Made by a program: the position numbers and the translations under genes
Part shown: piece after piece, positions 12,523 through 48,900 of the stretch
How the letters are laid out: each line of letters begins with the position of its first letter
Position numbering within the stretch: the first letter of the stretch is position 1
The notes under the pieces: generated by a model
The model's database searches: none
Told to the model about the DNA's origin: nothing
What the model saw: only the letters and a program-made list of their open reading frames with translations
NCBI RefSeq assembly: GCF_037042905.1
Contig: NC_087245.1
Coordinates: 24,678,001-24,742,000 of the forward strand
Length of the DNA stretch: 64,000 bases
From: Lytechinus pictus
Taxonomy: Eukaryota
Direction of reading: 5' to 3'

Positions 12523-12824
12523 ATTATGATTTCACACGACCAGTTTTCGTCGAACCCAAATCAATAACCAATAAACGAAGCGTAGATTCAGAACCAGTCT
12601 CGAATCCAAACCCTGAAGTGAAGTTCAACGCGTTTGGCCAAGTCTACCATGTTCGTCTCCAACCAAACCGCTGGTTACTAAGACAAGGTTTAGTCGTTGA
12701 ACGAGTAGCTGCAGATGGAACGGTTACAGAAGAAGAGATACACGATCGGGATTGTTATTACTTTGCTCACCTATTATCTCATAGTAGTGAATCTGCTGGT
12801 GCTCTCAGTACATGTAACGGACTG
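12523..12824 (+). CDS. ADAMTS exon: reprolysin (M12B) propeptide
   Basis: ttctaacAG acceptor, ctg|GTAAGA donor; YDFTRPV...KFNAFGQVYHVRLQPN...DCYYFAHL...GALSTCNGL matches the ADAM/ADAMTS prodomain pattern. Confidence 0.9.
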
Positions 12825-21100: not shown

Positions 21101-24100
21101 ATCATGGAAGTAGTATGTCCTTTCATAATCGTTCAATCGCCAAGTTAAATCCTTTTCTACCGTAAAGCAAGCTTCGATTATCTGAGAAAAGGAAAGCACA
21201 TTTTGCCTCGATCTTGAATCATAGGCTAGTAACATAATCACTTTCATTTCATTTTATTTCATGAGGTGGTTTCATCGGCTTCAGAGTATTAGCGTTTTAC
21301 GTGTATGATAGAAAGGTTTTAAAGCAATTAAAAGGATGGTCTTTTAAAAAAAAGAAATTCCCAATATAATTATTGAAACTCAAGACTCGAAACTCCAGAT
21401 TCGAAACTCGAGACTAGAACTTTGGCAACACGCGCAGACCGCCGTAATAGTGGTGGTAGTATTAGTATTATGATGAGGAGTTGTTGCTATTGTTGCTGCA
21501 GTAGTGGTAGTAGTATCTTTCATGTTCATTTTCATACAGCTGCTTGGAAGGGATGGTAGAAACCACACTCTGAGGATACATGGTAATGGCCCTGATCTAG
21601 TGGATGACGTATGTCGCTGGGCAAATATCTTGAACCCCTCCAGCGTTAATGATCCGCTACACTTTGACAACACCATCCTCATGACAAGGTATTTCACTGA
21701 TTACATTGTATCAACGCGATTTAAATAATTACCGGTATGTAACAAAACCATATTTTACGATGGTAAATGTTACCATATACCTTGGGCCGCTCTTTAAGCT
21801 CCGAAGTGTGACGCCATCAGTTCTTCAATTTTGCATTTGAGCAATTTTGATATTTCGGTAGAACACGATGAAATGCCGCCACATTCTAAATTGGGTGGGA
21901 ATCTGTCAAGGGGGCCAAATATATGATTTTGTGAACGCAAATTTAGCCCCTTGCAATTTTAAGTGACCGGTGCGTGTAATATGGAGAGATTGAAGAGCGC
22001 CATCATTTTTTATTAACTATTATAATACTACTTTGATAATAATCCTCTCACCATTTACAGGAGAGACCTGTACACCGTCTCTGGAGGCCAAAAGAACTTT
22101 GGGCTGTTAGGAAGGGCACCTCTTGGGACGGTCTGTAGACGGACTGATTCTTGCAATGTAAATGAAGAAGATGGATTGGAAGCAGCACTAACAGTCGCTC
22201 ATGAACTTGGTCATAAGTAAGATCTGCTTCTGTCTCGGCACGTTGCGTATGTCATGATTGGAGAAAAATAATTAGGATATTATAGAGAAAGTGAATTGGA
22301 ATTAGAATCGGAATAGGGCCTCCTGTATTTTGGATGCTGATTTGGGAAAATTAATTCATGAAGATTAAAAAATATTTTTCAAGGTATGCATGTCTTTACT
22401 TAATATCTTTAACGAATTTAGAGGAACAATTGTCGTTTAAAACAATACTGTACATATCTAGTGACGTAGATAATAAAGAGGTGTTAGTAATTGCCCAACT
22501 CAAAGAACAGTCAAGAGCCCCAACGTCACATTAATACTGGTTCTTGATATACCAACTCGATATATTTTATTCATGCCCTCCTCTCGTGATTATAATATAA
22601 TCATTAAAAATATATATATTATATTTGTTTTTAAAAAAGTATATATCATATTTGTACAAAAATCTATTATTTGTATTCTTCATTGACAATTTCCTATCTG
22701 TTTCAATAATTTCCTCTTTGTTTGAATATGTCATGTAAATGTAACATCCTCACAATTTCATGCCTATATAAATCATTAGTGATGATGCTTGATGGTTTGC
22801 ACGGTGGTATGATGAATCGCCGAAGTGTCTTACAGTACACCAGGGGCGGATGCAGGATTTTCAAAGGGGTGGGGGGGTATTTTTTACAGGAAAAATTCGG
22901 CATACCCCTAAAAAAATGTGACCCTGCCGGGATACGCCACTATTCATGGTGTACTGTAAATCACTTCCGCGAAAATCTACCTTATTATCTTCTATCTATC
23001 TATCTTTCTATCTATCCATCCATCCATCTATCCATGCATCATATCCATTTTAGTTTGAATCTATACCACGATCCCGACTATGGTTGTGCAAATGGTCGAT
23101 ATGTCATGTCATCTATGAAGGTCGTAGGGGCGTCATCCTTCAAATGGTCTCATTGTAGTGCAACCTACTTAGCACTGTTTCTCAAGTTAGTCATCCAACA
23201 TCATAGCAACCAAATAATATTTATCGACATTGTTAAACCTTCCTCAAAATATATCCATCCCGTGGTCTGACACAAGCAATCGTCACCACGGTTACATGTA
23301 TATTCTGTGGCTGATTCGTATCCCATCCACGTAGGCCTACTTCAAAACTGCAATAATAATCTTTGGTGTGGTATTTTTATATTTATTTCTACACCTGATT
23401 TGTAATGTTGCCTTATTATTGATATCGCTTGATTGGCCTGTATTCAATGAACAACGTGAATTAATTCTACATCGATGGTATCTAAGGTAATTAAGAGCAA
23501 CATTCGTTTTCATATTATTTCATTGATCTTTCTTTATTTATCTATTTATTTGTTTTATTATTTATTAACTATTTTAGATACTAAAGTTAATATCCAATTA
23601 ATACTAGAAGTAATAAGACAATGGTAGCGGAGGAATCAAACTGTATTTCCATATCTAATTTAGATCCCTATTTTTATCTTCATGACTACACCCTTAATTG
23701 TGATCGGTCATAAATTATAGCCAAATTGTTGGTTATATCAATTTTGACATACAAAAATTATCAAAATCAATAATTTATTGGTAAGAATATTACCAGAACT
23801 TTGGTTGATATTGACCACTTTCATTTGGGCGGACACTTATTCACCAACAGATTGAATGCTTTGATTTAAATGATGCATCGAAAAATCTAATCAGCCGATC
23901 TTTATGTTCTTTCGATAGTTCGCATAAAGCAGCATGCGTCCTACATGGTAATCGAACTCTATTTCTATATCTAATGTAGATAGCTGAATTCATCTATCAT
24001 GACTGACATGAATGATATTCTTCAATGTTGCATCTTATTATTTAAATGACAGACCTATTTTTTTTTTATATGCAGTTCTCCCAAAGCGGCATGCCTTCTG

Positions 24101-27100
24101 GATGTACCCTCAACAGATCACCAGGAAGTCGATATGATACCTATAGATCAATTAGCAGGTACAAAGTATAGCAGATTGCAACAATGTAAAAAGGCATATG
24201 GAACTGATGTCTATACACTATGTGGAGGAGCACGGGCTCATACTGTAAGTATGCATGTTTATTAGCTAAATTTGACTTATTTGATTCATTGGCACTATGG
24301 CTGTCGATCCGGAGAAAATTAGGGATATATTTCCCAATATTTGAGGTGGGAATGACCTTTAATATCACCTCCAATAATTTAAAGTACAATAATTATGAAC
24401 ATCATTCATGACAAGTGTCATGATGATAAAGAGGTAGTACGAGTATGATGATCATGATGGTAGTGATGATTGTCGTATAGCCCACAGGCATGATGACAAC
24501 CATATTTTTTTTTTTTTTTGGGGGGGATCTCCTTACGTTAAGTGTTATTGAATGAATCCATTGCTTTCCGAAAGTGTTATAGAAACAGATGTACGGATAG
24601 AGCAAACATAGAGTAAAATAGTTAATATTTTTACACTTAATATTTTTTTTCAAATTCACTCTTTCCCCAACAACGAATACCGATCGACACCCATGACCGT
24701 TATAGTATAACAAGGTAGAAATATGTGATTTACTTATATCGAGTAGTGTTTAAAATGCCGTGTATACAATCTTCTCATGTCATTATCAAGTTGTAAAGTA
24801 TCTCGATATATACCCGATAAATGCGGCACATATTTTGGACGTTAATACAATTCATCTGAATTCCGTTTCATAAAAACAAATTTGCAATAACAGATAAAAG
24901 CTAAAGAAATCGATCAATTTGATTGGCTAACTGTAAACGTGTTGTGGAAGTTATGCATCTGATATAATAATAAGTCTTTATCTACTTTCGAAGTGAAAAC
25001 TGTTATGGTGTATTGTGTTTTATTCCACTGCTATCTACTTTGCCAGACTTGTGGACAACTCGGTTGTAACCGGTACGGGTGGTGTATGCACATGTCAGTA
25101 ATGGAAGGCACCAGCTGCGGAGAAGACAAGGTAAAATCGGTTCTAGGACAATTACCCCCCGGACAATCACCCCCGGACAACTACCCCCCTGACAATTACC
25201 CCCGAGGACAATTACCCCCTGGACAATTACCCCCCGGATAATTACCCCCTGAGGACAATTACCCCCGAGGACAATTACCCCCGAGGACAATTACCCCCGG
25301 ATAATTACCCCCTGGACAATTACCCTCCGAGGACAATAACCCCCGAGGAAATAACCCCCCCCCGGACAATTACCCCCGAGGGCAATTACACCCGGACATT
25401 CACCCCCCCCCCCTCCCCCGGACAATTACCTCTGAGGACATTTACCCCAAGACAATTACCCCCGGAAAATCCCCCCCCCCCCTTCTCTCCGGCATCGATA
25501 TCAGAATCAAGCGGGACCCATTGTAAGTCTTGGTCGGTGGCACAGGTTTTCGAAATATTTTCTACTGTATCTTATGTTAATAACTTTTTAGTTTTTTCCT
25601 GGCTTTTACCTTTTTTTCTTCCTTTTCCGCATTTTTTTGTTTTTGTTTTTGTTTAGCAGTGCCTTTTGCATCATGAAAAATGGGGATGGGGGCTTGCGCC
25701 CCAAACCTCCCGTTTAGCTACGCATATATACATCAGAAAATATGTAAACTGGCCCTCATACTAAGTTTTCATAGAACAATTGAATATTCATGAAAGGACA
25801 CGATTGGACATAATAATCACAAATACCTAATATCCCTGATTCCAACTGATCTATTTTTTAAAATTTATTTTGGGTTTAATTTCAGGGAAAAAATCAAGCA
25901 AATACATACAACGTTAAAAGACACCTTCACAGGTAGAAATATTGAAAGTCGATAACGCAACCATCAACACTAACACTGACAAGTAGGAACTATAAACCTG
26001 TTATTTTAAAACAATTCAACTAACAAGAAGCTAAGAATTATGAAACAATTGGTGCACATTCCAGATTAAGATGTGGCTTTAGTTTATAACTTAATACAGT
26101 AAGCTAAAAAACAAATCTATGCACAGATTGTGTGTATTATCTTAGAGTGAAGGCAATTAAATGTTAAAAAAGGAAATTAAGTACCAAAATTACTCAATTT
26201 GTAAACAGTATGGCATAATCAAATACTGTGTTTTTCCATACAAATTGGCAATCATGATAGTGTTAAGCATATATACAATTCGTTTAAGGGGCATTTCAAG
26301 GACGGTGAGAATTTATAAAGAAATTGGCCTATACATAATTATACTAAACAATCAAATAATGCGACCGCGCATTGTGAGCTGAAAATATTAATATTTAGAC
26401 CATAAAACGGACATTGTACAGAGCTCTTGAAAAAATCAATTTGTAAATGAAAAAATAATGAAAGCTCGATATACGAGCTGAATTATATTTTTATATTGAC
26501 TTCAAAAGTTGATATTTTAAGCTCTATATCAGCCTATATTGAGCAAGATATGAATCTCATCGAACAGGCAATGCGAGCGCGAAGCGTTACCGAAACTTGT
26601 ATATACTATAATAATAATAATAATAATATGTTCATTTATATAGCGCTCTTACAATATATCATCGTTTCACAGCGCTTTACACAATGATGGAATAAAAAAT
26701 TACAATAACTAATACATGTAAATATTATTGATTAAAAAGCAGAGTCTTGAGATGTTTCTTAAATACTTCCAAAGAAGGAGAAAGTCGCATATATCTTGGA
26801 AGGTCATTCCAAAGTCTTGGGGCACATGTCTGAAAAGCATTGTCACCAGGTTTAGTATTTGTCCGTGGAATATGGAGTAGAGTAATGTCCGTACTCGAGC
26901 GAAGCCCGGGACGTTCTGACTGATGTAGGCGGATGAGAGAGTCCATGTAGTGTGGAGCTTCATTGTGGACAATCTTGAAAACAATGGTCATAATCTTGAA
27001 GACAATACGTTGCTTCACTGGAAGCCAATGCAACTCTCTTAACAGAGGAGTAACATGATCGTGCTTACGAGCTTTGAAAATCAACTTGGCTGCACGGTTT

Positions 27101-30100: not shown

Positions 30101-33100
30101 AATTGCCAACCGAATGATCTTGTGCTACGGTGACATAAAAATTATGATAGAATTCTGGGATCGTAAAGATTTGCAGATGGAGCTCACTTTTTACGGCTTT
30201 CTTACTGCGTTCGTTTGATTCCAAGATACTCGAGAATGCCTTGAGTACTTCTTACGTCAACCGTACGGCCGTCGTATGACTCTGTGCACTCCCTTTGTCT
30301 AGGCCCCAGGGGGTTATTGTCCTCGGGGATAATTGTTCCCGGTGGTAATTGCCCTCGGGGGTAATTTTCCGGGGGTAATTATCCGAGGGATAATAATTGC
30401 CCTTGGGGTAATTGGCCGGGGGGTAATTGTCCGGGGGGTATTTGTCCAGCGGGTAGTTGTCCTGATAAGGGTAAAATCATCACTGGTTGATTATTATGTT
30501 AATCCCAAAAATTTCATGTCTTAGAACATGTAAGATATATATAATAAGATGGGGAGGAGGAAAAAGGCAACGAATAATAATAATAACGATAATAACAATA
30601 AGAAGAAGAAGAAGAGGAGGAGGAAGGAGGAGGAGGAGAAGGAGAAAGAAGAAGAACAAGGAGAAGAAGAAGAAGAAGAAGAAGAAGAAGAAGAAGAGGA
30701 GGAGGAAAAAGAAGCATGAAGAAAAACTTAATCACCAATTTCCCTTTATCCCTTTTCTCCTCCCCTTTACTATTTAAAAAGAAATGGAACAGGTGGCAGT
30801 TGCTCATCTGCATGTCCCCCCCCCCCCCCCTCCCCTCTGGAGGTGCCGAACCTAACTTAATGCATAATTGCTAAATTTAGACAAAACTTAGCTTTTCAAA
30901 AGCCTTACTTCTCCTATTTGACATATAATTTTGCTATTTTATTCAGTATTATGCTGGTTCGGTTTTACAAACTATTTTGCTGTTTGGTTGACTTAGCTTT
31001 ATTTACCTGCCCCTTAATTAATACAATTTTTTACAATTATTTTTGCTGCAGTGGTGTTACAGCGGGCACTGTCGTACATCTATCGGGGGCATTCCCGACC
31101 CCGTAGACGGTGGATGGGGGGACTGGACGGAGGACTTCACCCCTTGTTCTCGTACATGTGGTACAGGTGTCACTTACAGACGACGACCATGTGATAACCC
31201 TGCCCCTCGTTATGGCGGCAAAGCTTGTGAAGGCCCGATGTATATCATGCACACTTGCAATGAGAATGTAAGGCATTCATGTTTTTAAAATCTTTCTTTA
31301 AAGTTGTAACCACCCCCCCCCCCCCCCTCAGTGAAAAGTTATGAAAAATGTAGTTTGCCTGTTTAAAAAAAAATAACTGCACATTATTCAATAATATTGT
31401 TGAAATGTTTAAAATGCAAAGTCTTTATGGATAATTACTGCAATTAAGTGCTTTCCGCATTATTTTTACAGAGAAGATTATTAATTTCTTTAGTTTCATA
31501 ATGGCGAAGCACGAGCTGAAATTTTGTTAGATATTGATCTGAAATACGATACGTTACTTCGCTTAACAATAATACAATCGAGAAGCATGAGCGGACTTTT
31601 TATTATGGTTAGTGACCTAAAAGATTTGATATTCTGTCAATTTTTTCCTCTGTACTTTTCTTACTCCTTTTGTTTGTCCACTTCTTGTACTTACCTTCCT
31701 TTTCTCCTTTTCTCCTTTTAACCCCCCCCCCCCTTGCGCCGCCAAATAAAGGGTGGGGCGCTTCGCCAGTGTGCACAAGTGAGCAGAGATCTCATCAAAA
31801 TTTTATGCTGGCCGTCCCTCTCACGTCCCTGCTCCGAAGTAACGATCCACCAATGTATTGTTTAACATGCACGGATATAAAGAAACATCTTCACTCTTAA
31901 CCAATAAGATAACTGGGTTGTTTCTCACTCTTATCACAATATAAATATTGAATGTGCGAATAATTGATTCCCTCATTGTCGTACTGCCAAAGATGTGCAT
32001 ACCACTGTTTTGTGTAAAGTAAGATAATTATAAATTTATCATTTTTTAATCTTTAAAAATGGCTAGTGAAAATATTTCTAATGAAATTTTATTTTCATGC
32101 TTCTTTGTATTTATCTCTAGATATAAGTCACATGTTTATTTTTCTTGGGGTTGACTTAATGTACCCTTAAAGTGCTAAAATTAAGCTGTAATTTTTATTG
32201 TCTTGGTAGCCTTGTCCAGGGATCGAAAGTGCAGACGATTACAGACGAAGGGAATGCTCCAAGTCCAATTCTATTGTATACAAATATCGCACGTTTGAAT
32301 GGTCCACGGAAACGGATGGCAATATTTTAGGTAAAAATTATTGAGAACAAATTAAGCTTAAAGAAGTTAAAATCCAAACCATTTCACTTCATATTTTATT
32401 AATCATTTCATAAACATTTTCTTTTATTTTCCTAAGAAAATTAGATTTGAAAGACTTTGGATAGTTATTTATTGATCACTGGAGTACAAAATGGGGGGGG
32501 GGGGGCTTCTGGGCCTGGACCCCAATATTTTCAAAAACAGGAAACAAGGAGAAAATGAAAAAAGGGGATGATGAAATAATTTTGTGATTATGTTCAAATT
32601 TGTAACAAAATCAGATTTTGAAGCAACAAGGTCGATTTTTTTGCTCGCTTGCATCTTTGATAAATGTTGCCACATGTGCTATGTCTGACCCCTTCAAATC
32701 TTTGAGGTCATTATGCTGCTATGATTGATTGTCTTCTTCTTCCTCTTTTCTTCTTTTCGCCTGTTTTCTGCCCCTTTCCCCCTCCCACTTCTCTTACCCT
32801 TTTTCTTTAAGGGTACAATGCCTAATCCTGAATGAATGTTGCATGTTAGTTGGTCTTGCTTTTATTTTCTTTCTTGTTTGTTCATGTTAGATGATTGGCT
32901 GTGCATTTTGAAATGTACAGCGAAAATAGGAAGTTATGTGCTCGAGCATGTCCGACCCCCATATAAAGTATCGGGTGGAACTAAGTGCTGGAGTGATGAA
33001 CCAGATGAGCTAAGACGAACTCGAAGATGTGTCAATAACGAATGCAAAGTGAGAAATAATAATAATAAAGCATTTACCAACGAACGATTTTATCATAATA

Positions 33101-36100
33101 ATGTGAGCAATTTTAGGTTTTGTTGTTTTGGAACTTGGACGTGATCTTTATTATTAAAAAACACATCAAAAACGTTGTTGTTGTTGATGATGTTTTGTCC
33201 AAGCGCCTTTTTTATTGCTATTTTGATAAATTAACCGTATATAAATCAACAATATCTATAATTCAACCTCCTCAGCAAAAATATAGTATTAATTCTAGGC
33301 CCATGCCATTACCGGCTGCTTAAATCTAATTACTTTCAACACGAATACCCTGAATAACTTCATTTTAGTAAATACAGTTCAATCTATTTATTTTCAGTCA
33401 GACTGCAGGTCCCAAGAAAGTGGCTTCTTTCATCCAAGTGATATTCATGACTTGAGATGTTTTGCATATTTAATGAGCTTGATGCGACCCAAAACACCTC
33501 TTTTCATTCGGTCATTGCTGCTTTAATTATGCATCGAATTTCATGAATTTGGTACCATTGTAAAGAAGAAGAATTATTCTTTCAGGTCATGTGTTTGGAT
33601 TTATTCAAAGATTTTGTAATATAGGTTAAAATTGTGATCTAAAATATGCTACAAAATAAATATTTTCACCTGACAAAAGCTGCTATTTTCACACTTTATT
33701 TTTGTTTGAGCCCAAATGATATTTATATCATGATAAAGCTGAATATGTATGCTTTGAAATGATATAGGTTTCAAAATAAGAATTGGTTTAATCGGGTCAA
33801 GATCACACTTTTCATTTGCCAAGTACATAAAGCAGCTTGAAAACAAGTATACTGCACTCTGATTGGTCAAAAAGACCACACAATGGCAAATTCCAACGGT
33901 TCCAGTGCCTGGGTTCGTGGGAAGGTCACACTTCCCATGTGGTAATCTCCTCAAATACCCCGCGCCTGTTGTTCTGTGAACCTTATCCAGCCAATCAGAA
34001 CTCTGGATTTCATGCAAGTACAAAATTTCAGAAATCTCGTCTTGTACCTTGGTGGGAAAAGTGTGATCTTGACCCGATTAAAAGTTGCCGCATATCAAGA
34101 GTGGCATTGTGAGAAAGTACAGAAGTTCAGCTTTATGGTGATATAGATATCATTGAGGCTCAAAATAAAAAGTTTTGCACAATTTGCAAAAGAAAACAGA
34201 GGAAGAAAATTCAGTTTTGAGGCACAATTTCAGGCCAGAAATTTACTTATTTAACAAAATATTGTAAACAAAATAAATGACTAATGTGAAAGAGTAACTT
34301 TTACTCTATCTGATGGTGCAATAATATTTCATTTAACTTGAGGTTAAAACAGGTAAATTCTTAGAGAAAGAAAATCTCACGAATCACGAGATTTTGCAAG
34401 GAGGAGGATTCAGCCACGAGATGATCTGGATGAATCTGGCCTTTTTGCTCATTAGCATAGGGACCTGCGGTCTGACTGTTTTCTCAGCATGAAAATGATG
34501 TTTACATGAATAAACAAATAACATGGTTCCGGCTCAATCTATTTTTTTTGTCAGCTTGAAAATGATTTGTGCAGGAATAAACAGATACCATTTATTATAG
34601 ATAACAAACGGAAACCAAAGAAAATTTTAGAAAAAAAAGCTTGTAGTTCCCAGAAAATTAATATAAAATACAAAGCCATGATAACATCATTAAATGGTAA
34701 TTTATTACATTTCAAACCCATTATGCCATAGGAGTTTGGGTGTGATGGGGTATATGGATCGGGTAAATTATTGGATAATTGTGGTGTTTGCGATGGGACT
34801 GGAAGGACATGCAAACGGGTGCATGGAGCACTCCTTGAGAGGATGCCAGTAAGAAAAATGAGTAAGTTCCAGCATCATCTCTATCTGTTTCTACCAGTGG
34901 CGTACAGAGGGGGGGGGGGGCTTGGGGCGCTCGTCCCCCCACAAATAGTAATAACGGCAAAAAAGGAAAAGGAAAGAGAGAAGGGTGAAATATAATATTA
35001 TTTTCCGAACGAACATTATGTCAAAATCTATCACAAAATTGGATATCTGTAATTAAAATGTCGAAATTTTTGCTCGCTCGTTTTGCTCGCTAGCAACTTT
35101 TTGATAAAAATTGCCCGATACGCCATATCTAGCCCCCTCATTTTTTTAGCTCAATACTCCACTGGTTTTTACCAATTCTTTTGCTAATATTTTCTTGTTA
35201 TATCGTTTAGAAGATAAATGTTTGAATTGTGAGATTGCGAATTTTATAACTGACAAAACGCTTGTAACTGTAAAGACAATGAAAATTACTAAATAAACAC
35301 TGGAAATAATTATAATGCATATTGTTGAACATAAGGATGATTATACATTATTAAGAATATGATTTATGGATTAATATGAAGGGATACAAAGTTTAAATAC
35401 CTCTTTGATATAATTTTTTATATTTTGATTAAGGAGAGTTCCAAAACTGTATACCATTGTTATTGGAGTTTCAAAGTTGATTGTAATAGCATGTCCATGA
35501 AGCCATGATTATTTTGATAACACGGATTTACAATGGCAGCAGGGTATCAATTTTGTGCCACGGGTATGGTGCGCTATTTGTCCCATAAAGGCGAACACTA
35601 ATTTTATCGCCGTTATGGGACAAATGGTGCGCCATAAATGAGGCCGCAGAAGTAACCCTGGAACTTTTCTCCTATCCCCAAGGATATTGGAGGTGGTTGG
35701 AGATACCCGTTGGAGTTATAGGGGTGAATATAACAAACATCGATGCCTTCAATCAAGGTTTGGGTGAGTAACCTTTTAAGGTAAACTGCAATTCAAAAGC
35801 TTACCAACGAACGTAGAGGGCAGCAACACACAGCAGTGTTGCCGCCCTCTACGGTTGTTGGTAAGCTTTTGAATAAAACAGAAAATTGAGAACAACAATT
35901 AACGTTTATCATGTTTATAAAGATTAGCCGAAATCTATCATAGAATATCAATATTCCCATGGGTGAGCGGAGTCAGGAGCGTTGCTAGATATTGTTACAG
36001 GGACAGAGTTTGGGCCATCGCGAGATATTTCTAAAAATGGATTCATGTCTGTTCCCGAATATTTTTTTTTTCAATTTTGGGTTAACGGCCCCGCCCCTCC

Positions 36101-37910
36101 CCATTACTTCTTGATATGTAAGGATTCATTTTAAGAAACGTGATTTAGTTAGTAATAACCATTTTCTAAACAATGAAGAATGAAAATCCAAACTTGTATA
36201 ATAAGGATGGTAGATGGTTAAGTGAATATGCCAAAGTAAGAACAGCAATTAATCAACATTGGTTCAAATGCATAAAAGAAAATGAACAAACAAATGAACG
36301 GATTTAAATAGGCAAATACAGTTTACGTACTCTACTGTGAAAATTGTAAAAACACGAAGTAAGCGTAGAGTGTGTTAAATTGAAACAAATTTATAATGAT
36401 CTCTTGACTATAAAAAAGAAGACGTCTAGAGCAATATGTTACTGGAATAAATTTTTTAACCCGAATCCTGCGACGAATTGGAAATCACTTTGGTTATATA
36501 AGTTAAAATATGTTCGTGATAATTCTCTCATTCAATTTAATTTTAGTTCCATCAAAATTGTTTAAATAGAATTTGAAAGACTCTGATATTTGTAATTATT
36601 GTGACCAAAAGGGAGATTTAATGCATGCATTTTTCTTTTGTGATTCAGTTAAACAATTTTGGAATACTGTAGAAATAGTTATACGAAACATCTGTTGTAA
36701 ATTTTTTGTGTTTTCACCTCAGTTTTCCGTATTTAACTTAGTTACAAAGATAGAAAATATCAATGATATAAGATTATTTATCAACTACTCACTTTTTTTC
36801 TATTTATAGAGCCGCAATTATACATATAAGAAACAAAAATGCGACACATACATAATATTTTGAAAAATTATTCGTCTTTATTGTTAAGAGATCGTATAGA
36901 GGTAGAAACAAACAAAAGCAAAACAAATAATGAGATAAATATTGAGTTGTGGAAAAGGGTCCTCGGAGGATTGTAATTCCTTTTTAATTCAATTCATTGT
37001 TGTCATCGTATTCCGACAATTTGTATTGTTTTCCTTGTTTGTACCTTAAATTTTAGTATACAGTTTTTTTTTGTTTTCATTTGAAAAAAGGAAATTTTGT
37101 AATAGCCCGTAATTTTTATGTGGATTTGATATGTAATAAATGAGAACAGAAATGGTATAAAGAGAAAAAAGAAACGTAAGGGGCGTTTATACACAAGAAA
37201 AATTTATTTGGATCACGATCCAAATTTCGATTTTCGATTTTAAATTCGAGAGAAGGTTTACACACACCCACACATGCGGTGCTCAACAAATTATCGCGAT
37301 TATTATTAACAAAAAACCGCAAGAACTATACGAATTAAATCGTGGTTAGGACCGCGACATTTCTAGGATTTATTTTGTCAACAGTAATCGAATTTCAAAT
37401 TCACTTTTGCCATGTCTGCCGTATCTATGAGGACCTATCCATTATTATTGGATGTAGTAACTTAAGTGAGATAAAAATTATTGTGTAGCTTAAATCTCCA
37501 AGCTGCCCTACTGCTTCGAAATTTTGTAAAGGTTGAACAAAAATGTCCGCCGGGAATCGAACCTGAAATTCAAAATTTATGTTTTCATTCTCGTTTTCAG
37601 TTCTGATGGTTGATGGACGAACCATTTTTCGCCCGACTGCTTTGAAAAGACAGAATGCTAAACGATTTACCTTGCATAATATGTTAATTCTCTTGCAAAA
37701 TAAATATATGAAATGGGAAAAACTGTGGATTCTTTCTGGACCAACGACTAAGCCGATATTTCTTGATCTTCTAAATGAACATTTTATTATCAAATCAAAT
37801 GCCGAAATTCGTGCGAACCCAACAATATTCTACGAGTGGTATGAACCGATCAACATGACTGTCTCTTATTAGTGAGTATGTAGTATTTACACTGAAATAT
37901 ATATATATAT

Positions 37911-40347: not shown

Positions 40348-43300
40348 CATACATATATACAGTGCGTCCCACAAAAAACGATACCGAGATTTAGCGATGA
40401 TTTATCATAACTTAATCATAAATACAAAAGACAAATGACCTATCAATGTAAAGCTCTTCGTTCATCTGATATTACGTAGGTTATTCCTAATTCACGCGTG
40501 AGTGAGCAAAAACAATTTGAAGAAACGATATCAAAAACTCATTTGGCGGGGGGTATCTGAATTTCAACAAGAAAATCACATGCCTAAAAAGTTCAATATC
40601 TGCTCTTTTATTTGATACCTTAATCACACAAAAATGGTCGAGAAGTAAAAAAGTTATGTTCCCTCGAAACAAGGCTTGTATTTCGGTAATTTCATGAAAT
40701 AAACGTGTTTTCACCGGTTTTCCACAGAAGCTATATCGCAGTGCACGGTTAACAAACGACTTAATGCATGGCTGATCGTCAACAAAACGGAGTGTCGAGT
40801 AAGTTTGAACGCCAGCCTGTAAAAACCTCTTCATTTTATGAATTTATTTAAATTCAAGCCTTATTTCAAATAACCAGAACTTTGTTATTTCTTGACCATT
40901 TTCTGTAATTGAGGTATCAAATTTAAGAGCAGATATTGAACTTTTTAAGAATGTGATTTTCTTTTTGAAATTCAGATACCCCCGCCAAATGAGTTTTTGG
41001 TATCCTTTCTTCAAATTGTTTTTGCTCACTCATGCGTGAATGAGGAATAATCTAAGTAATATCAAATGAAAAAAGAGATTCTAAGCTTTACAATGGTAGG
41101 TCATTCGTCTATTGTATTTGTGATTAAGTTATGATAAATCATTGATAAATCTCGGTTTCGTTTTTTGTGGCACGCACTGTATATATATATATACATTTTC
41201 TTGGGGAGAAAAACAGGGGGTTGCCATATTAAATTATAATTAACTCGTTTATAATTCCACGATATAAAAGCACGCATAATGTGGCTTTGATCTATTATTT
41301 TCTTATTCTAATGGTCGGAAGAACGGAATAAACCATCCGCAAAAAGGTTTATAACGTAATTACTGCAAATAGCATTATTTCTATTATAGAAATCGGAATA
41401 TCCTTAAACTCTCCTGGAAAGGTAATGATAAGACAGATTTTCAAATGTCTTTGTAAAAGAAGAGACTTCTTGTAATAATGAAGATATTCAACCGTTTCTA
41501 TTTACCATTTTGTGTTTTATATTGAACTTCATACATTATTATGTTATCATTTTCCTTTCATTGAATTCATATAGTTGGGTGTTATATACTTTAATTGAGT
41601 GTTCGGTTACGTGTGGAGGAGGTAATCAGACGTTTCAACCAGTTTGTGTTGAGGTAGGTTTATTATCTCTTGCTAGCTTTCCCTCCCTCTCCATCCACCT
41701 CTTTCTCTTCCTCTCTCTTCTCTTCCCCACCCCATTCTCTGTCTTTTTCCTTCTACAACTCTCTATTTATCTTTTATGTATCATTTTGTCTATCCATCCA
41801 TCCATCTATTAATCATCGTCCACGTATTTGCGTAAGAAACAACAACCATCAAAAGTCAATGTGCAGAGCTGACTCATCATATGCATATAGTTGTCAACAT
41901 GATCAATAAAAATTGATTTTCCCCAAATTTGGGGCCCTCCCCTTTCCTTGGGGATACAGACGCTCCCTAAAAATAGGGGATCGAGCCCCCCCCCCCCCCC
42001 CGAGGGCTTTATTTGATTAACAAACCTCTTATTAATGTATGAGGTTTTTATTCATCGGAGAATTTGGATTTTCCAGATTTTGTAGATAATGCCGTAGCTA
42101 TAACGTGCGTGTCTTTTTAATCAGCCGCCACACTCTTTCTTGTTCGGGGCCAAAATAGCCCAGTCTTTTAACGGTTAAAACGGTTCACATACAAAATAAA
42201 TGATTCTGTTTTCAATGTTCAGGAAATCAATGGAACGCGTGTAAACACAAGTGATATCTTCTGTAAAGATTCCCCTGTGCCACCAACCGTCTATGATTGC
42301 AATACTCAGAGATGTCCAGGAGTGTTCTGGTTGATAGGTGATTGGGGTCAGGTGAGTTACCAATAGACACACTGTCGGAAAAAACAGAATATTTTATAGA
42401 ATAAAAAAAACTGATTCTATAGAATAGTTTCTATTATTGTTATAACAGAAAAAAATTATACAATTTTAAAGAACAGGTCTGTTTTAAAAAGGGAAAACAG
42501 TTTATGTTACAATAAATTTGTAAGGTTACATACACCAAATACAAATTTTCTGTTATTTTACACAAATGCATGTAGGATTACACAGTGCAGTAAGATTATA
42601 TAAGTGTTCTCGAGACTCTGCTGCAGGAAGTTTTGTCGTTGCGCCGAACTGAGCAGTCTACTAAAAATGCGTTACAATTAGATTTCTGGTTTTTTTTATT
42701 GCTGTTTGAGCCTAGGCTTGTTTAGCCACAGAAATGATGCACTTTTATTTACTGACAGGTCGGAACGAATTTGACCCCGTTCAAGATTTACATCGACCCC
42801 CCCCCCCCAAGGACATTTATATATGTTCATATACAACGTAGATGAGTTACATAAGCGTATTTAAATCGTATTTTTAAAACCAACTTGTTCCTTTTGATAT
42901 AATATTTCAAGGAGTGCTCTGTGACATGTGGACAAGGCGTCTTCGAGCGTTTCGTTGAGTGTGTAGAAGGATATACCATGGTGGTCAAACCAACCATTGA
43001 CTGCATTGCAGATCTGGGGTATAGACCTAATATCACCTTGCCATGTCCTCTAGGTCCATGTCCTACCGTCATTGCAACCACATTATCAGGTATCCTATCT
43101 ATCAATCAAAGTATTTCATACTTTTAAATCAGGGGAGCTTTTCATCGACATTTTTGTTCGACAAGTTGCCGGATCTGACTACTTTCCTTGATTTTTGGAT
43201 TGCTAAGGGGAAACTCTACAACCACCAATTCCTTTGAAAATGCACGTCAAATCACAGTGGAGAGCTGAGAGGCTTTTGTCTAAAGTTTGTGGACCGGGAC

Positions 43301-44720
43301 AGCATCGAAATCACTTGACTCTGGACAGCGACAAAATTTTATTTGCAACTGTTCGTTCGCTGCAACTCTTCGGATGATCTGCTGTCCCAGTCCGCCAACT
43401 TTCGACAAAAGCCTCACAGCTCTCCATTCAGTTTGATTTTAATTGCATGCATTTTCAAAGGAATCGATGCGTTGTAGTCAGAGTTTCCCCGTAGAAAATA
43501 AGAAAACTGAGAAGCACTGCTATTATGGTAACTGTCAGATAAAAGCCGAACTTGTCGGATAAACTGTCCTATAATTCCTTACATGAAATGCTCCCAAGGT
43601 ATCGGATCACTTCACATCTACTCATGATGCTTGAATGCAAGTTGATACCTCATTCTCCCTCATTCGCTGTAAGCCGCCGTAGTTGGCGTCATCAGATGAA
43701 TTATTAGGAGAAATGCCCAGCCGTCATGGGCGCACGCCTCTTATTATTCCACATCATGCCCATAGATTCATGTTTAATCAGATTTGATAAAAACACCAAC
43801 ATTAAGCTTAATAAATAAAAAAAAATCAATTCTTTCTGAAAAATAAAGTGCTAAATTAACCACTTTCGGTATTACAAGCATAAATGCCTAGCAGTAAAGG
43901 ATACACACTCTGATTATTCATCATCATGTCAATAAATTTATGCGTTATAATTAGATCTGATAAGTCACAGAGAATAATTGTTAATAATTAGAGACTTCAT
44001 ACACTCTAACATAAAGGGCTAAATCCACCCATGTAGGATAACAAGTAGAAATACCCAGACGTAAAGGGTGCACGCCTCTAATCATTTCTCTATCATGCCT
44101 TATATATATATTTATATATATACATGCCTCATGTAATATAAAATGATTTGATAAATACCACACAGAATAAGTGCTGATCGATGGTAGGATTCATACATGA
44201 ATAAATTGTAATTTCAGCACTTTCAGTAGCTCCTATTGTGACTACACACACATGACCTGTTATTCAGCACTTTCGTTGCTAAAATGGTCGTGTGGGGGTT
44301 CACTCAGTTTATTCACATTCTATTACGTTTGCTTGTTTTTGCCCTGTTTAACTCTCCTCTTCAGCCTCAGATATAGTGTGTGAACTCGTACTCCATGCTT
44401 TTAAGTTTACCTTTTTATCAAATATTGTATGTGATTAACTTATTTGTGATCATTTTGTATCTCTAAGATCTAGAATTCGTTCTTCTGTTTCAGATATTAC
44501 AACAGGCACTGAAGGAGAAGCAACTATGTATAGTGACGTAACAATGGAGACAACTAATGAGTCAGACTCGGGTCAAGGAGCAGGAGGATGGCCCGGAGGA
44601 GGAATTCCACCATTTATTTCTTTACCAAATACTGCTTCTTTTAACGAGTACAATGTTTATCTACTACTCACAGCTCTTACAATCAGTGCTCTAACAGCGT
44701 GTTATAAACTTACAATGTGA
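12523..44720 (+). CDS. ADAMTS-family metalloprotease with thrombospondin motifs, 19 exons, 5'-incomplete (signal-peptide exon not identified)
   Basis: Hand-spliced exons 12523-12824, 13724-14018, 16255-16487, 20055-20144, 21540-21688, 22061-22216, 23054-23185, 24076-24244, 25047-25130, 31052-31267, 32210-32330, 32891-33048, 34732-34861, 35683-35763, 37601-37871, 41575-41653, 42223-42351, 42912-43089, 44494-44720. All introns are GT-AG with matching phases, and the frame stays open to TGA at 44718-44720. Canonical ADAMTS domain order. Paralog/ortholog identity not assignable by eye. Confidence 0.93.
13724..14018 (+). CDS. ADAMTS exon: prodomain with RYRR/RTRR sites and Asp-rich tract
   Basis: gacAG acceptor, g|GTAAGT donor; RGLISHDDTDTYIAPL...AHIVYKR continues the CNGL-RG-x-YIxPL-HIVY prodomain motif. 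Confidence 0.88.
14054..14247. mobile_element. Short CAGGGGCCG MITE, 5-bp TSD CCTAT
   Basis: cctat|CAGGGGCCGCGGAA ... TTCCACGGCCCCTG|cctat. Confidence 0.8.
14878..16209. mobile_element. Tc1/mariner-like non-autonomous element with long TIRs, TA flanks
   Basis: ta|CAGTGCGTAT ... ATACGCACAG|ta; arms of about 300 bp are inverted; a partial second copy lies at about 38640-39315. Confidence 0.8.
16255..16487 (+). CDS. ADAMTS exon: acidic linker and start of catalytic domain
   Basis: cccAG acceptor (a second in-frame AG 6 nt downstream), atc|GTAAGT donor; RYIEVFVIIDDKMLRRH...NYTLSIMNI. Confidence 0.88.
16518..19671 (+). mobile_element. tRNA-derived SINE (head 16518-16663, tail 19526-19671) interrupted by a DNA transposon
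   Basis: A-box TGGTCTAGTGG and B-box GGTTCGAATCC, core GGCAAGGCATTT...CCACCCAGGTG...AAATGGGTACC; tail AAGCGCTATAT...(ATT)n. Confidence 0.75.
16664..19525. mobile_element. 2.86-kb non-autonomous DNA transposon, CAG(A/T)CCTTCA TIRs, 7-bp TSD CGTCAAT
   Basis: cgtcaat|CAGACCTTCA ... TGAAGGACTG|cgtcaat; subterminal TGAGGAGC motifs at both ends. Confidence 0.8.
20055..20144 (+). CDS. ADAMTS exon: catalytic domain
   Basis: ttccAG acceptor, acg|GTAACG donor; ISRRYIDPSLKNEIRMAIVKL (DPSL motif). Confidence 0.85.
20490..21100. repeat. (AGT)n/(AGC)n microsatellite interrupted by a MITE
   Basis: Direct inspection. Confidence 0.9.
20770..21049. mobile_element. CAGGGGCGGATC MITE, 5-bp TSD ATAGT; internally deleted relative of 58432-59003
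   Basis: atagt|CAGGGGCGGATCCAG ... CTAGATCCGCTTCTG|atagt; near-identical to both ends of the inverted copy at 58432-59003. Confidence 0.85.
21540..21688 (+). CDS. ADAMTS exon: catalytic domain
   Basis: catacAG acceptor, ag|GTATTT donor; DDVCRWANILNP...HFDNTILMTR. Confidence 0.88.
22061..22216 (+). CDS. ADAMTS exon: first part of zinc-binding motif (not in ORF track)
   Basis: tttacAG acceptor, aa|GTAAGA donor; RDLYTVSGGQKNFGLLGRAPLGTVCRRTDSCNVNEEDGLEAALTVAHELGH. Confidence 0.93.
23054..23185 (+). CDS. ADAMTS exon: end of zinc motif and Met-turn
   Basis: ttttAG acceptor, aa|GTTAGT donor; completes HELGHNLNLYHD, then YVMS Met-turn and WSHCS. Confidence 0.92.
24076..24244 (+). CDS. ADAMTS exon: end of protease domain, start of disintegrin-like domain
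   Basis: tgcAG acceptor, act|GTAAGT donor; SPKAACLLDVP...LAGTKYSRLQQCKKAYG. Confidence 0.9.
25047..25130 (+). CDS. ADAMTS exon: disintegrin-like domain
   Basis: tgccAG acceptor, aag|GTAAAA donor; TCGQLGC...VMEGTSCGEDK. Confidence 0.88.
25139..30469. mobile_element. Foldback/MULE-like element with 15-16-bp GGACAATTACCCCC subterminal arrays, 9-bp TSD GGTAAAATC
   Basis: Array at 25145-25480 and its reverse complement at 30307-30463; TSD at 25130-25138 and 30470-30478. Confidence 0.8.
26608..30290 (-). mobile_element. Decayed L2/CR1-group LINE (APE endonuclease + reverse transcriptase pseudogene)
   Basis: Minus-strand ORF pieces carry APE motifs (LWNCHSL, FLTET, LLGDYNIH, GHTLDLI, SDH) and RT motifs (NYRPVSNLPFLSK, GVPQGSVIGP, YADD, LHWLPV); in-frame stop at QSAYR and frameshifts; 3' end AGCGCTATATAAAT...(ATT)n. 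5' boundary approximate. Confidence 0.93.
30598..30715. repeat. (GAA)n/(GGA)n microsatellite
   Basis: Direct inspection. Confidence 0.9.
31052..31267 (+). CDS. ADAMTS exon: central TSP1 repeat
   Basis: ctgcAG acceptor, aat|GTAAGG donor; WCYSGHC...VDGGWGDW...CSRTCGTGV...CDNPAPRYGGKACEG. Confidence 0.95.
32210..32330 (+). CDS. ADAMTS exon: Cys-rich domain
   Basis: ggtAG acceptor, g|GTAAAA donor; PCPGIESADDYRRRECSKSN...YRTFEW. Confidence 0.85.
32891..33048 (+). CDS. ADAMTS exon: Cys-rich domain
   Basis: gttAG acceptor, aaa|GTGAGA donor; LCILKC...VSGGTKC...CVNNECK. Confidence 0.87.
33395..34478. mobile_element. Non-autonomous DNA element with CAGTCAGAC(T/C)GCAGGTCCC TIRs
   Basis: 19-bp TIRs with one mismatch, TTTT on both flanks; internal inverted pair TTAATCGGGTCAAGATCACACTTTT at about 33788 and 34057. 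Confidence 0.75.
34732..34861 (+). CDS. ADAMTS exon: end of Cys-rich domain
   Basis: catAG acceptor, a|GTAAGT donor; EFGCDGVYGSGKLLDNCGVCDGTGRTC. Confidence 0.92.
34895..35164. mobile_element. hAT-like CAGTGGCGTA MITE (second copy 59746-60045)
   Basis: TIRs CAGTGGCGTA/TACTCCACTG; flanks GTTTCTAC and GTTTTTAC (8 bp, one mismatch). Confidence 0.7.
35683..35763 (+). CDS. ADAMTS exon: spacer domain start
   Basis: ccccaAG acceptor, g|GTGAGT donor; YWRWLEIPVGVIGVNI resembles the spacer Y..V..IP.GA..I.I pattern; phases fit both neighbours. Confidence 0.8.
36150..36980 (+). pseudogene. Degenerate 3' fragment of an L1/Tx1-type LINE ORF2
   Basis: ICNYCDQKGDLMHAFFFCDSVKQFW fits the CxxC...HxxxxC..V..FW zinc-knuckle of L1/Tx1 ORF2; upstream NWKSLW..K motif; frameshifted. 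Confidence 0.65.
37601..37871 (+). CDS. ADAMTS exon: spacer domain
   Basis: ttttcAG acceptor, ta|GTGAGT donor; EKLWILSGPTTKPIFL...NPTIFYEWY (GPT..P and NP.I.YEY-type spacer motifs). Confidence 0.85.
38167..40196 (+). tRNA. Interrupted tRNA-like gene or SINE head (38167-38198 + 40157-40196), UCA anticodon in the best fold
   Basis: Joined 72 nt fold into a full cloverleaf: GTCTCTG/CAGAGAC, GTCT/AGGC, CCGGC/GCTGG with loop GT-TCA-AA, CCGGG-TTCGATT-CCCGG; followed by T6. Non-functional as it stands. Confidence 0.7.
38199..40151. mobile_element. Transib-like non-autonomous transposon: CACAGTG termini, 5-bp TSD CGGCG
   Basis: cggcg|CACAGTGGGCCAG ... CTGGCCCACTGTG|cggcg; second conserved block TGCGCCAAAAC in both TIRs. 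Confidence 0.85.
40360..41179. mobile_element. Tc1/mariner-like MITE with about 300-bp TIRs in a (TA)n tract
   Basis: ta|CAGTGCGTCCCACAAAAAACGA ... TCGTTTTTTGTGGCACGCACTG|ta. Confidence 0.85.
41575..41653 (+). CDS. ADAMTS exon: second TSP1 repeat, first half
   Basis: catatAG acceptor, gag|GTAGGT donor; WVLYTLIECSVTCGGGNQTFQPVCVE. Confidence 0.88.
42223..42351 (+). CDS. ADAMTS exon: second/third TSP1 repeat
   Basis: gttcAG acceptor, cag|GTGAGT donor; DIFCKDSPVPP...CNTQRCP...WLIGDWGQ. Confidence 0.9.
42912..43089 (+). CDS. ADAMTS exon: third TSP1 repeat
   Basis: tandem AAG/GAG acceptor (start 42912 or 42915), g|GTATCC donor; CSVTCGQGVFERFVEC...PCPLGPCP. Confidence 0.88.
43207..43490. mobile_element. 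Palindromic GGGGAAACTCT MITE nested in an older element (about 43132-43595)
   Basis: GGGGAAACTCT...AGAGTTTCCCC and internal GAGAGCTGAGAGGCTTTTGTC/GACAAAAGCCTCACAGCTCTC inverted pair. Confidence 0.65.
44494..44720 (+). CDS. ADAMTS terminal exon: Thr/Ser/Gly-rich stalk and hydrophobic C-terminal tail
   Basis: ttcttctgtttcAG acceptor in the correct phase; DITTGTEGEATMYSDVTMETTNESDSGQGAGGWPGGGIPPFISLPNTASFNEYNVYLLLTALTISALTACYKLTM*. Confidence 0.78.
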
Positions 44721-46388
44721 TCGTAGTGATGCGAAAAGACAAATTCATTGGAAGTATAGATCTTAGATATGAAGCTCCTTTCTATGTAAAGCTCGAAGCG
44801 AGCGTTATCACTGACATTTATTGAACGCTTGATGGAGCTGTTTTGCTGTAAACCTCAGAGTGCATTAGATAGTAACATGTTTCAAAATAATGGTTGTCAT
44901 TGTTTTTTAAAATGGACAAGTAAAGGCCCTGCCTGTCAAAGAAAAGAATGAAAGTATGTAATCAAGAGAAGTTAGAAAAAGGCCATCGAAATAATCGTAT
45001 AAAAATAGGTTGAATGAAAAAACGAAACTATAATGATTTTTTAAAAACAGATCTAGGAAGTCGAAGTTGACTGTCTTCTCCATTAGTTAATTCGTAGTTG
45101 AAAATATTTGAAAAGTTGATAGGCCTGTTATCGAAATGAATTCTTAAGTAAAAAAAATATATAACATACAGTGTTAATATTTATTTCTTTTTCTGAATGA
45201 CTTTGATCAGTTGAAGTAATTAAAAAAAAACAGTGGTTTATTTTTGAAAATCTTTGGCCTCAAAGAGGTAATAAAACGTATAAAGTTCGAATTTAAGTTT
45301 TCGTGTTCATCTTTGCATAGTTGATGAGGTCTAATTGAGGATGGATGTCATACTGCCGTCACATAGAAGAAACCGATTACAAAGCGATCGATGATAATTA
45401 ACTTTGATCGCTCTGTCACTTAGGTATCGGATTTGTTGGTTTGACTGCGACATCACCTCCCCGACTGGAAATAACACAGTGTGCGCCGCAGTGTGTTCAC
45501 AGTGTGGAACACAATGTGAAATCACCTTTACATTGTTAAATTTGAGCATTTCAACAGTGTGAATCACATATTCACTTAGTCGACCATGTGAACACGCTGT
45601 GAACTGTCGAAGTGTTCACAGTGTGAAAATATCTTCACACTGTTGAATTTGAGCATTTTAATAGTGTTAATAATGTTTTCACATAGTTCATTATGTGAAC
45701 ACACTGTGATCATACTGTGTGGCACTGTGTTCTTTTCCGCAGGGATAGCACTACGGTGGCTGGGAGTTTTGAAAAAGTTGGAAAAAGGAAAGAGAGAAAG
45801 GAGAGATCCTGTTTCGAGATATCTATTGTCGAAGACACAAATCAATATTTTTCATAATATGCTTTATGAAATTAATTATAACACGTGCAATTTTCAAGAA
45901 CAAATTTTTTAATCAAATAATTTTAAGATTTTGAATATGAAGAACATCAAACTCTAAGCATGCTCAGATGGAATGGTTCGTAGCGAATAATGATAGTTTC
46001 ATTAATGAGATGAAACTAACTATTTTTGGCAGTTAATATCCTTGGTCCAGCTTGTCATAAAAAACCTGCCAATGTTTGGTTACACGGGGGAGGGGGCAGG
46101 GCGCTTTGGGAGACTCGAGTGAATACTAATCATAATTAAGAGTAATGTATACTGTTCTCACTATACACAGTTGTATTTTTTACCCTCGTCAACAAGCTCC
46201 AATCGTTCTTAAATTGTAAGAGATGGTGTGGGGGCAGCTATCACTACTATTCCAAAACGATGCTGATAACCATATCTGGGCAGCGAGGTGTCTGATTATG
46301 CTCAAATTTTACAGGGAGATGTAGGCCTACAATAATAATTCAGTAACTTTTGGGCGAATCTTTTCCAATCATAGGATGACTTTTGGGC

Positions 46389-46646
46389 TCGGTGTAAAAA
46401 TGGCAGAGGTAAAAATGGCAGAGGTAAAAATGGCAAAGGTAAAAATGGCAGAGGTAAAAATGGCAAAGGTAAAAATGGCAAAGGTAAAAATGGCAGAGGT
46501 AAAAATGGCAAAGGTAAAAATGGCAGAGGTAAAAATGGCAGAGGTAAAAATGGCAGAGGTAAAAATGACAAAGGTAAAAATGGCACAGGAAAAAATGGCA
46601 CAGGTAATAATGGCAAAGGTAAAAATGATAGAGGTATAAATGGTCA

Positions 46647-46683
<37 letters not shown>

Positions 46684-48476: not shown

Positions 48477-48734
48477 CTTTTGCGCACGTCGCTCACTTCA
48501 CTCGCTTGTATATAGAAGCATACAGATTTCATTGGTATAGCTATTTCAAATTCTACCAATTTGTAGCTTTTCTCATTTCATTTTTAGACGATTTAGTTCA
48601 TAGTCAGCGATTTGGGACACATGAAAAAGTGCAGTATCAGTATATAGTAGCAACAACAATGACGATGATAATAAAAACACTGACAACAATTATGATAATG
48701 ATAACATTAATAGAAATCGTATTGATAATAATTA

Positions 48735-48900
48735 CACTGTAAAAAATGAGGTGCTAATTTAGCACTTACAGTGCTTGTATAGTGACTGCACTACGAGTGC
48801 TGATTTTCTAGTTCAAATTTAAACTAGAAAATCAGCACTCGTAGTGCAGTCACTATACAAGCACTGTAAGTGGTAAATTAGCACTTCATTTTTTACAGTG
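48735..48900. mobile_element. 166-bp near-perfect palindromic MITE, CACTGTAAAAAA termini, TA flanks
   Basis: The whole element folds back on itself with only a few mismatches. Confidence 0.88.

Follow-up and report, generated by a model that had tools for sequence, protein, structure and literature searches.

An ADAMTS gene of the sea urchin Lytechinus pictus ends in a stalk and a predicted GPI-addition signal

We analysed a 64,000-nucleotide stretch of the Lytechinus pictus genome (RefSeq contig NC_087245.1, positions 24,678,001 to 24,742,000 of the forward strand; hereafter the window) and found on its + strand, at 12523-44720, a 19-exon ADAMTS gene whose last exon encodes a stalk and a hydrophobic end with the layout of a glycosylphosphatidylinositol (GPI) addition signal. 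The introns are GT-AG throughout and the exons form a single open frame of 1065 residues. An ADAMTS with a stalk and such a GPI-type tail had been noticed earlier from the letters of the window (the sequence-only reading), and our analysis of sequences confirms it as a real, conserved feature. We further propose, with a probability of about 0.7, that the product is a GPI-tethered surface enzyme with its propeptide clipped, and that a released form would arise by splicing or shedding.

Judged by every core feature tested in the sequence, the window gene is an ADAMTS, not a member proper of the CUB-ended subgroup but derived from it. Pfam analysis of the L. variegatus orthologue (P0008) gives the domain order propeptide, metalloprotease, disintegrin-like module, TSP1, Cys-rich domain, spacer and two further TSP1 repeats. 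The zinc motif HELGHNLNLYHD spans exons 22061-22216 and 23054-23185 and fits the ADAMTS consensus HEXXHXBG(/N/S)BXHD, as given in the available text of a family review (PMC4448532). A Met at +13 after the third His aligns with the Met-turn of ADAMTS13, two loop residues being deleted, and a second Met follows at +16; against the family range of 14-20 residues past the third His, we counted the Met-turn as present. The spacer region has 132 residues and zero Cys, and the spacer exon matches a Lytechinus pictus RefSeq protein with 100% identity, against 88% for L. variegatus. Exon 13724-14018 holds two R-x-x-R sites, so that the propeptide has the furin-type site expected of the family. A furin-type site directly ahead of the catalytic domain is absent here, in the Diadema and Strongylocentrotus relatives and in three other echinoderm CUB-type proteins, while two crinoid and two ADAMTS16/18-type proteins do carry one in that place. 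A long acidic linker with one Cys (13724-16487) would remain on the enzyme after furin cleavage. The top PDB match, both by sequence (E 6.9e-66) and by fold (E 4.6e-45), is human ADAMTS13 (6QIG), with ADAMTS1, 4 and 5 next in both searches, and the fold match to the catalytic fragments of ADAMTS1/4/5/13 reaches target TM-scores of 0.83-0.88. An ESM Atlas match of residues 235-324 to a circumsporozoite TSP1 cluster, at 0.78 only, lay under the level that shuffles often reach and was discarded. Pfam found no EGF domain and there is no cytoplasmic tail, so the protein lacks these modules of the ADAMs; no CUB was found in the orthologue rows P0008, P0013 and P0266, nor a CUB exon downstream within the window. 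The terminal hydrophobic signal is where the gene departs from the description of its family, which in the available text of two reviews has no EGF, transmembrane or cytoplasmic modules and adds TSP1, GON-1, CUB, PLAC or mucin modules (PMC4448532; PMC4349717).

The last intron lies between 43089 and 44494, with donor and acceptor both in phase 1, and the exon entered there has 75 open codons and a stop at 44718-44720. In a ranking matrix trained on the 18 other acceptors of the same gene, the 44494 acceptor is first among the 200 AG sites in 43110-46500 and third among the 1042 in 43110-63990. The GTs inside 44494-44720 score 3.4 at best, below the weakest (4.1) of 18 real donors. No further TSP1 or CUB exon was found in 44720-64000 by motif and tblastn scans (PLAC and GON were not scanned separately); a W-x-x-W-x-x-C match at 59760 was discounted as a TSP1 exon, as it sits in a repeat-like stretch. 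The tail exon itself matches no Pfam family. Both L. pictus RefSeq models that reach this end (XP_054758823 and XP_063961422) and all six L. variegatus isoforms use the 44494 exon, and the L. pictus RefSeq proteins match the C-terminal exons of the window gene and finish in the same tail. The sequence-only reading had thus described the region accurately, with a strong phase-compatible acceptor after the third TSP1 repeat followed by the stalk, Asn-Thr-Ala, a polar spacer and a hydrophobic end. It had also named a different last exon as the result that would speak against it; none was seen among the RefSeq models of the two Lytechinus species, which take 44494. A pair of tandem in-frame acceptors at 42912/42915, by which one Glu in the third TSP1 repeat is kept or dropped, lies one exon upstream, and RefSeq takes 42912.

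Contigs of a run whose kind is unrecorded (run X1) add a weak hint of expression, one of them resembling a spliced transcript that ends in the 44494 exon. This 1095-nt contig matches 44490-45046 without differences, and 538 other letters precede the match, which starts on four letters common to the 44494 acceptor and the end of the upstream exon. Exon 42223-42351 shares the same four terminal letters, and the upstream partner of the contig is therefore not fixed; a skip from 42351 to 44494 in the window gene would lead to a stop after 15 codons. A second contig extends to 45261, just ahead of an AATAAA at 45270. The word share of run X1 is 0.33, against about 0.32 expected if only exons and the 3' untranslated region (UTR) were present. 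Its depth is low just upstream of 44490, and we gave this coverage gap no evidential weight.

According to the available text of two sources (PMC2571997; bioRxiv 10.1101/838680), in a GPI signal a flexible linker leads up to small residues at omega, omega+1 and omega+2; the spacer then extends to about omega+9, and everything after it is hydrophobic tail. The residue at omega+2 is mostly Gly, Ala or Ser, and the site lies about 20-30 residues from the end. By these region rules the stalk, Asn-Thr-Ala, spacer and hydrophobic end of the window gene are the textbook layout of a predicted GPI signal. The Asn of Asn-Thr-Ala (44628-44636) is the 30th residue from the end, and the hydrophobic end has one Lys and nothing after it. 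That Asn is the single usable omega candidate in the L. pictus tail; Ala stands at omega+2, and the propeptide has 29 residues. The GPI-addition layout claimed from the letters holds in that the published rules give the tail a valid omega site. We also applied a rule of our own, with a mean-hydropathy cut-off of 0.9, and it was passed by 2 of the 181 other zinc-motif ADAMTS-type proteins (5 of 248 overall). Using the hydropathy of the last 20 residues, which is free of thresholds, only one of the 181 equals or exceeds the L. pictus tail. Of 30 downstream candidates for a phase-1 terminal exon, five pass the rule, and they represent two distinct ends, namely the tail of the 44494 exon and a low-complexity frame near 48516-48600. 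AlphaFold models the domains of the L. variegatus orthologue with confidence up to residue 970, apart from the acidic linker (131-231), whereas from residue 971 to the end the predicted local distance difference test score (pLDDT) is <50 and no secondary structure is seen, which thin alignment coverage may partly explain. The hydrophobic ends of four further proteins (P0020, P0050, P0158 and P0232) are probably mis-predicted. Among these, P0050, a CUB-type brittle-star model (Amphiura filiformis ADAMTS13-like), also passes the rule and may be either a mis-predicted end or an independent case.

The tail is not confined to Lytechinus. A tailed model, with stalk and hydrophobic end, is present in four of the five urchin species sampled (L. 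pictus, L. variegatus, Strongylocentrotus purpuratus and Diadema setosum), and the tails of L. pictus, S. purpuratus and D. setosum (three of the four) pass our rule. In the S. purpuratus fragment P0266, TSP1 is followed by a short stalk and a terminal run that is strongly hydrophobic. The D. setosum orthologue XP_072180813 (44-46% identity; the tailed orthologue row for this species is P0013) starts with a signal peptide, and after its last TSP1 come a Thr-rich stalk, small residues, a spacer and a hydrophobic end of 15 residues. The last exons of Lytechinus and S. purpuratus are homologous, their score being reached by 0 of 2000 shuffles, and a short P-x-x-S-[IL]-P motif is common to all four tailed species. 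Omega candidates (omega, omega+1, omega+2 and propeptide length) are Asn/Thr/Ala and 31 in L. variegatus, Ser/His/Gly and 28 in S. purpuratus, and in D. setosum either Ala/Asn/Gly with a 24-residue propeptide or Asn/Gly/Thr with 23. The S. purpuratus candidate sits elsewhere than in Lytechinus, yet, as in all four tails, the small-residue site lies about 10 residues upstream of the hydrophobic run. Among the best 150 of 1050 50%-cluster representatives (E <1e-30), no tailed orthologue was found outside echinoids, and cidaroids and irregular urchins were not identified; these hits contributed only urchin fragments as further orthologues. The suggestion of a lineage-specific cell-surface ADAMTS stands as to lineage restriction, with sea urchins broadly rather than one species as the lineage, and the anchor stays a prediction. 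The expectation that orthologues keep the tail was borne out in S. purpuratus and D. setosum, which retain stalk and hydrophobic end, but three models of D. antillarum and one of S. purpuratus depart from it.

The origin of the gene can be read from the tree and from gene order. We built an IQ-TREE phylogeny (LG+G4) from the catalytic-to-spacer core, with 25 rows, 569 columns and five other ADAMTS as outgroup; it omits 26 of the 51 rows of a FastTree analysis, including the short fragments P0266, P0107 and P0099. The tailed genes form one clade with 100/100 support, and the 51-row FastTree gives the same clade. This clade is sister to an urchin CUB-ended gene (100/99) and is nested among CUB-ended echinoderm ADAMTS. 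All CUB-type rows, the vertebrate ADAMTS13-like ones included, group 100/100 against the five other ADAMTS, and the vertebrate rows enter the CUB-type clade only at an unresolved basal fork. Two chimeric models, P0097 of D. antillarum and P0264 of S. purpuratus, run from the tailed gene into a CUB-type gene, and this places the tailed and CUB-type genes in tandem. No exon of such a CUB-type neighbour was found in 44720-64000 of the window. The simplest history consistent with these sequences is a tandem duplication of a CUB-ended ADAMTS13-like gene in sea urchins, after which the CUB exons would have been replaced by the stalk-and-signal exon.

For anchoring and activation, which we infer from the sequence, we propose the following course. 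A signal peptide from an upstream exon would carry the precursor into the endoplasmic reticulum, where GPI transamidase would cut after the Asn at 44628-44630 and swap the last 29 residues for the lipid, and furin-type convertases would remove the propeptide. The flexible stalk of about 55 residues would keep the enzyme off the membrane, so that matrix or surface proteins would be cut near the producing cell; on the substrate side, local matrix remodelling is our best guess. A soluble form may also arise via exon skipping and possibly by phospholipase or protease release. In D. setosum, isoforms X2 and X3 (P0096 and P0098) leave out one or two exons, after which the stalk exon is translated in the +1 frame (this frame is compatible with 45 of 45 residues and the other with 0 of 45), a frame shift that would yield released enzyme. 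Tail-less isoforms probably coexist with tailed ones.

The points that weigh against a GPI-anchored enzyme are taken up here together with the alternatives. An enzyme that is mainly secreted, with a hydrophobic end that is too weak, is trimmed or comes from a minor transcript, and with matrix retention through TSP1 and spacer, is unlikely in our estimate, although it agrees with the available text of the family review, where ADAMTS are described as secreted and without membrane modules (PMC4448532). Against a GPI-anchored enzyme, the thresholds of our GPI rule were set by hand, and small residues are frequent in such stalks, so that an omega candidate is easily found. The L. variegatus tail is marginal and just misses the rule (mean hydropathy 0.81), and the hydrophobicity of two tails is moderate, with 7 of the 181 background proteins being as hydrophobic as the L. 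variegatus tail and 12 of the 181 as hydrophobic as that of D. setosum. The similarity between the D. setosum and Lytechinus last exons is not significant (1609 of 2000 shuffles score as high). The hydrophobic end is absent from two of the three full-length D. setosum isoforms, namely the frame-changed X2 and X3, and the equivalent skip in the window gene would meet the early stop noted above. The second S. purpuratus copy, P0112, stops six residues past TSP1 and lacks the hydrophobic end. None of the three D. antillarum models has it, the stalk being kept in all three; one of these models is a fusion with the next gene, the other two finish differently, and these ends look like modelling errors. 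Moreover, RefSeq models are predictions of an annotation pipeline and not observed molecules, and the 43089-44494 joint is not among the run X1 joints listed (15 of 104). Against a mainly secreted enzyme, the tail is present in all eight Lytechinus models that reach the end, and the occurrence of a hydrophobic end in four species from three genera, compared to a background of 1-2%, is hard to account for without function.

Rather less probable again is that the tail stays uncleaved and crosses the membrane once, with hardly any cytoplasmic part, in which case the enzyme would be tethered, but not by GPI. The best 19-residue hydropathy means of S. purpuratus (2.47, strongly hydrophobic) and L. 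pictus (1.58) would suit it, whereas those of L. variegatus (1.19) and D. setosum (0.73, over a run of only about 15 residues) are weak for a stable transmembrane helix. The small-residue site ahead of the run in all four tails, and the lack of a basic cytoplasmic flank in any of them, also speak against such an anchor. We regard it as very improbable that the Lytechinus gene has lost its signal peptide, or that its splice forms are for the most part inactive, and hence that it yields no active anchored protease. What speaks for this is the missing signal exon. None that is credible was found in 1-12500, whether by tblastn queries from five N-termini, by scans for motifs and for an ATG followed by a hydrophobic stretch, or by a search of 1-12450 for donors. 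The models checked for Lytechinus, S. purpuratus and D. antillarum (P0003, P0008, P0011, P0121 and P0015) have no signal peptide either. Three weak ATG-plus-hydrophobic candidates upstream of the gene were considered, and none was convincing. The window, however, begins just 12.5 kb upstream of the first exon found and the signal exon may lie outside it; D. setosum X1 does have an N-terminal hydrophobic signal. In addition, the current L. pictus RefSeq model drops exons 20055-20144 and 23054-23185, the latter with the third His and Met-turn, and in two of the six L. variegatus isoforms (X3 and X5) the zinc-motif exon is missing while the tail is retained (rows P0002, P0003 and P0006, with the L. 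pictus model). If real, such models without catalytic exons would be anchored inactive forms. Yet both dropped exons are intact in the window, all 19 exons share one open frame with canonical GT-AG ends, and the core shares 88% identity with L. variegatus X1, where the entire active site is present.

Taken as a whole, a GPI-anchored enzyme would make the tailed clade a natural GPI-anchored ADAMTS subfamily of sea urchins, in which the CUB modules were exchanged before the diadematoid/camarodont split, splicing would yield active and inactive anchored forms as well as released ones, and the enzyme would fill the cell-surface role that ADAMs and membrane-type matrix metalloproteinases (MMPs) have elsewhere. 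We hold this fuller account to be somewhat better than an even bet.

In the literature covered, our searches on anchored ADAMTS found only an engineered GPI-ADAMTS13 construct, and searches on ADAMTS with GPI, sea urchin, echinoderm, Lytechinus and Strongylocentrotus found no description of the window gene; most subscription papers, supplements and the 2006 urchin metalloprotease survey were outside this coverage, and an earlier mention is possible. The protein is present in RefSeq under automatic names only. The available text of the family review reports two ADAMTS13-like genes in S. purpuratus (PMC4448532, citing Angerer 2006), and nothing on anchored ADAMTS is in that of PMC5446238. An echinoderm review, in its available part, calls ADAMs and ADAMTSs membrane-anchored in general terms and names no gene or anchor (PMC10381214), a statement that conflicts with the family review (PMC4448532). 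Sea urchins do make GPI-anchored proteins (available text of PMC2119707).

Among known systems, human ADAMTS13 and the CUB-ended clade share the core domain order with the window gene, which nests among CUB-ended ADAMTS in the tree. Human ADAMTS13 differs in being a secreted plasma enzyme, with two C-terminal CUB modules that define its subgroup, whereas the window gene has no CUB, only two TSP1 repeats past the spacer, a long propeptide that includes an acidic linker, and the stalk with a GPI-type signal. In the engineered construct, the MDTCS fragment of ADAMTS13 on a GPI anchor was active on cells according to the available text (bioRxiv 10.1101/2025.06.12.659386); it likewise places an ADAMTS core on such an anchor, but is an artificial fusion to the DAF signal and not a natural gene. 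The egg bindin receptor EBR1, another ADAMTS-type protein of urchins, combines a propeptide and a reprolysin domain with TSP1 repeats and acts at the cell surface, but it carries about 27 TSP1 repeats together with about 20 CUB domains and is described as secreted, and neither "GPI" nor "anchor" occurs in the available text of the paper (PMC13672419). An unnamed many-CUB protein of EBR1 type (P0110) was placed far from the window gene in our tree. ADAMs are membrane-tethered M12B proteases as well, but have EGF, transmembrane and cytoplasmic modules and no TSP1/Cys-rich/spacer ancillary domain, which the window gene has (available text of PMC4448532). The closest functional likeness would be to GPI-anchored metzincins such as Drosophila Mmp1-PC and Mmp2 and vertebrate MT4-MMP, which are surface zinc endopeptidases with tethered and released splice forms; the available text reports forms of the Drosophila enzymes that are anchored and releasable by phosphatidylinositol-specific phospholipase C, next to released forms (PMC5353688). 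These MMPs differ in being matrixins with hemopexin, not M12B/ADAMTS proteins, and their anchors are experimentally shown while that of the window gene is predicted. MT6-MMP is another GPI-anchored vertebrate metzincin.

The missing membrane anchor helps to separate ADAMTS from ADAM in the available text of the family review (PMC4448532), and a natural GPI-anchored ADAMTS, conserved among sea urchins, would break this rule. The tailed gene and its CUB-ended, untailed sister form a matched pair for the effects of tethering on substrate choice, range and regulation without CUBs. The CUB domains of ADAMTS13 autoinhibit the enzyme. L. pictus is a genetically tractable embryo model. The impact is limited by the fact that GPI-anchored metalloproteases are already known in other families.

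Table 1. Features of the ADAMTS gene, with positions in the window
Feature	Position	Strand	Remarks
M12B propeptide exon, first coding exon found	12523..12824	+	Pep_M12B_propep (Pfam) on L. variegatus orthologue
Propeptide end, two furin-type sites, acidic disordered linker exon	13724..14018	+	orthologue pLDDT <50, residues 131-231
Linker and start of metalloprotease domain, exon	16255..16487	+	
Metalloprotease exon	20055..20144	+	omitted in current L. pictus RefSeq model, kept in L. variegatus X1
Metalloprotease exon	21540..21688	+	
Metalloprotease exon with HExxH half of zinc motif	22061..22216	+	
Third zinc His and Met-turn exon	23054..23185	+	omitted in current L. pictus RefSeq model, kept in L. 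variegatus X1
Disintegrin-like module, two exons (24076-24244, 25047-25130)	24076..25130	+	ADAMTS_CR_2 on orthologue
Central TSP1 repeat exon	31052..31267	+	
Cysteine-rich domain, three exons (32210-32330, 32891-33048, 34732-34861)	32210..34861	+	ADAMTS_CR_3 on orthologue
Cys-free spacer domain, two exons (35683-35763, 37601-37871)	35683..37871	+	
Second TSP1 repeat, two exons (41575-41653, 42223-42351)	41575..42351	+	
Third TSP1 repeat and stalk start, exon with phase-1 donor	42912..43089	+	
Terminal coding exon: Thr/Ser/Glu/Gly stalk and predicted GPI-addition signal	44494..44720	+	orthologue pLDDT <50, residue 971 to end
Predicted omega, omega+1, omega+2 (Asn-Thr-Ala); 29-residue propeptide	44628..44636	+	published region rules
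Polar spacer, omega+3 to omega+8, 6 residues	44637..44654	+	
Terminal hydrophobic stretch, 21 residues, no cytoplasmic domain	44655..44717	+	best 19-residue Kyte-Doolittle mean 1.58
Probable 3' UTR, ends near AATAAA at 45270-45275	44721..45275	+	two run X1 contigs cover 44490-45261, no differences

Several other elements were seen in the window. An intron of the gene holds a broken long interspersed nuclear element (LINE) retrotransposon at 26728-29834 (- strand), with Pfam matches to an endonuclease and RVT_1, and a second LINE-like relic at about 36140-36900 (+ strand) has a weak zf-RVT match below the Pfam cut-off. Upstream of the gene, a tandem repeat of about 1279 bp occupies about 1-3800, with identical frames recurring at 1288/2567, 1523/2802 and 1698/2977, and related inverted-repeat elements lie at about 6850-7600 and 8310-8960. 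Downstream, a 15-bp minisatellite occurs at about 46390-46640 and 48170-48470 in opposite orientations, about 1.5 kb apart, in a foldback-like arrangement. At about 57830-57930 (- strand), a short open frame behind a pyrimidine-rich acceptor, with no Pfam match, is possibly the last exon of a convergent gene. A short frame at 58948-59181 (- strand) has no Pfam match and resembles pieces of histones H3 and H4.

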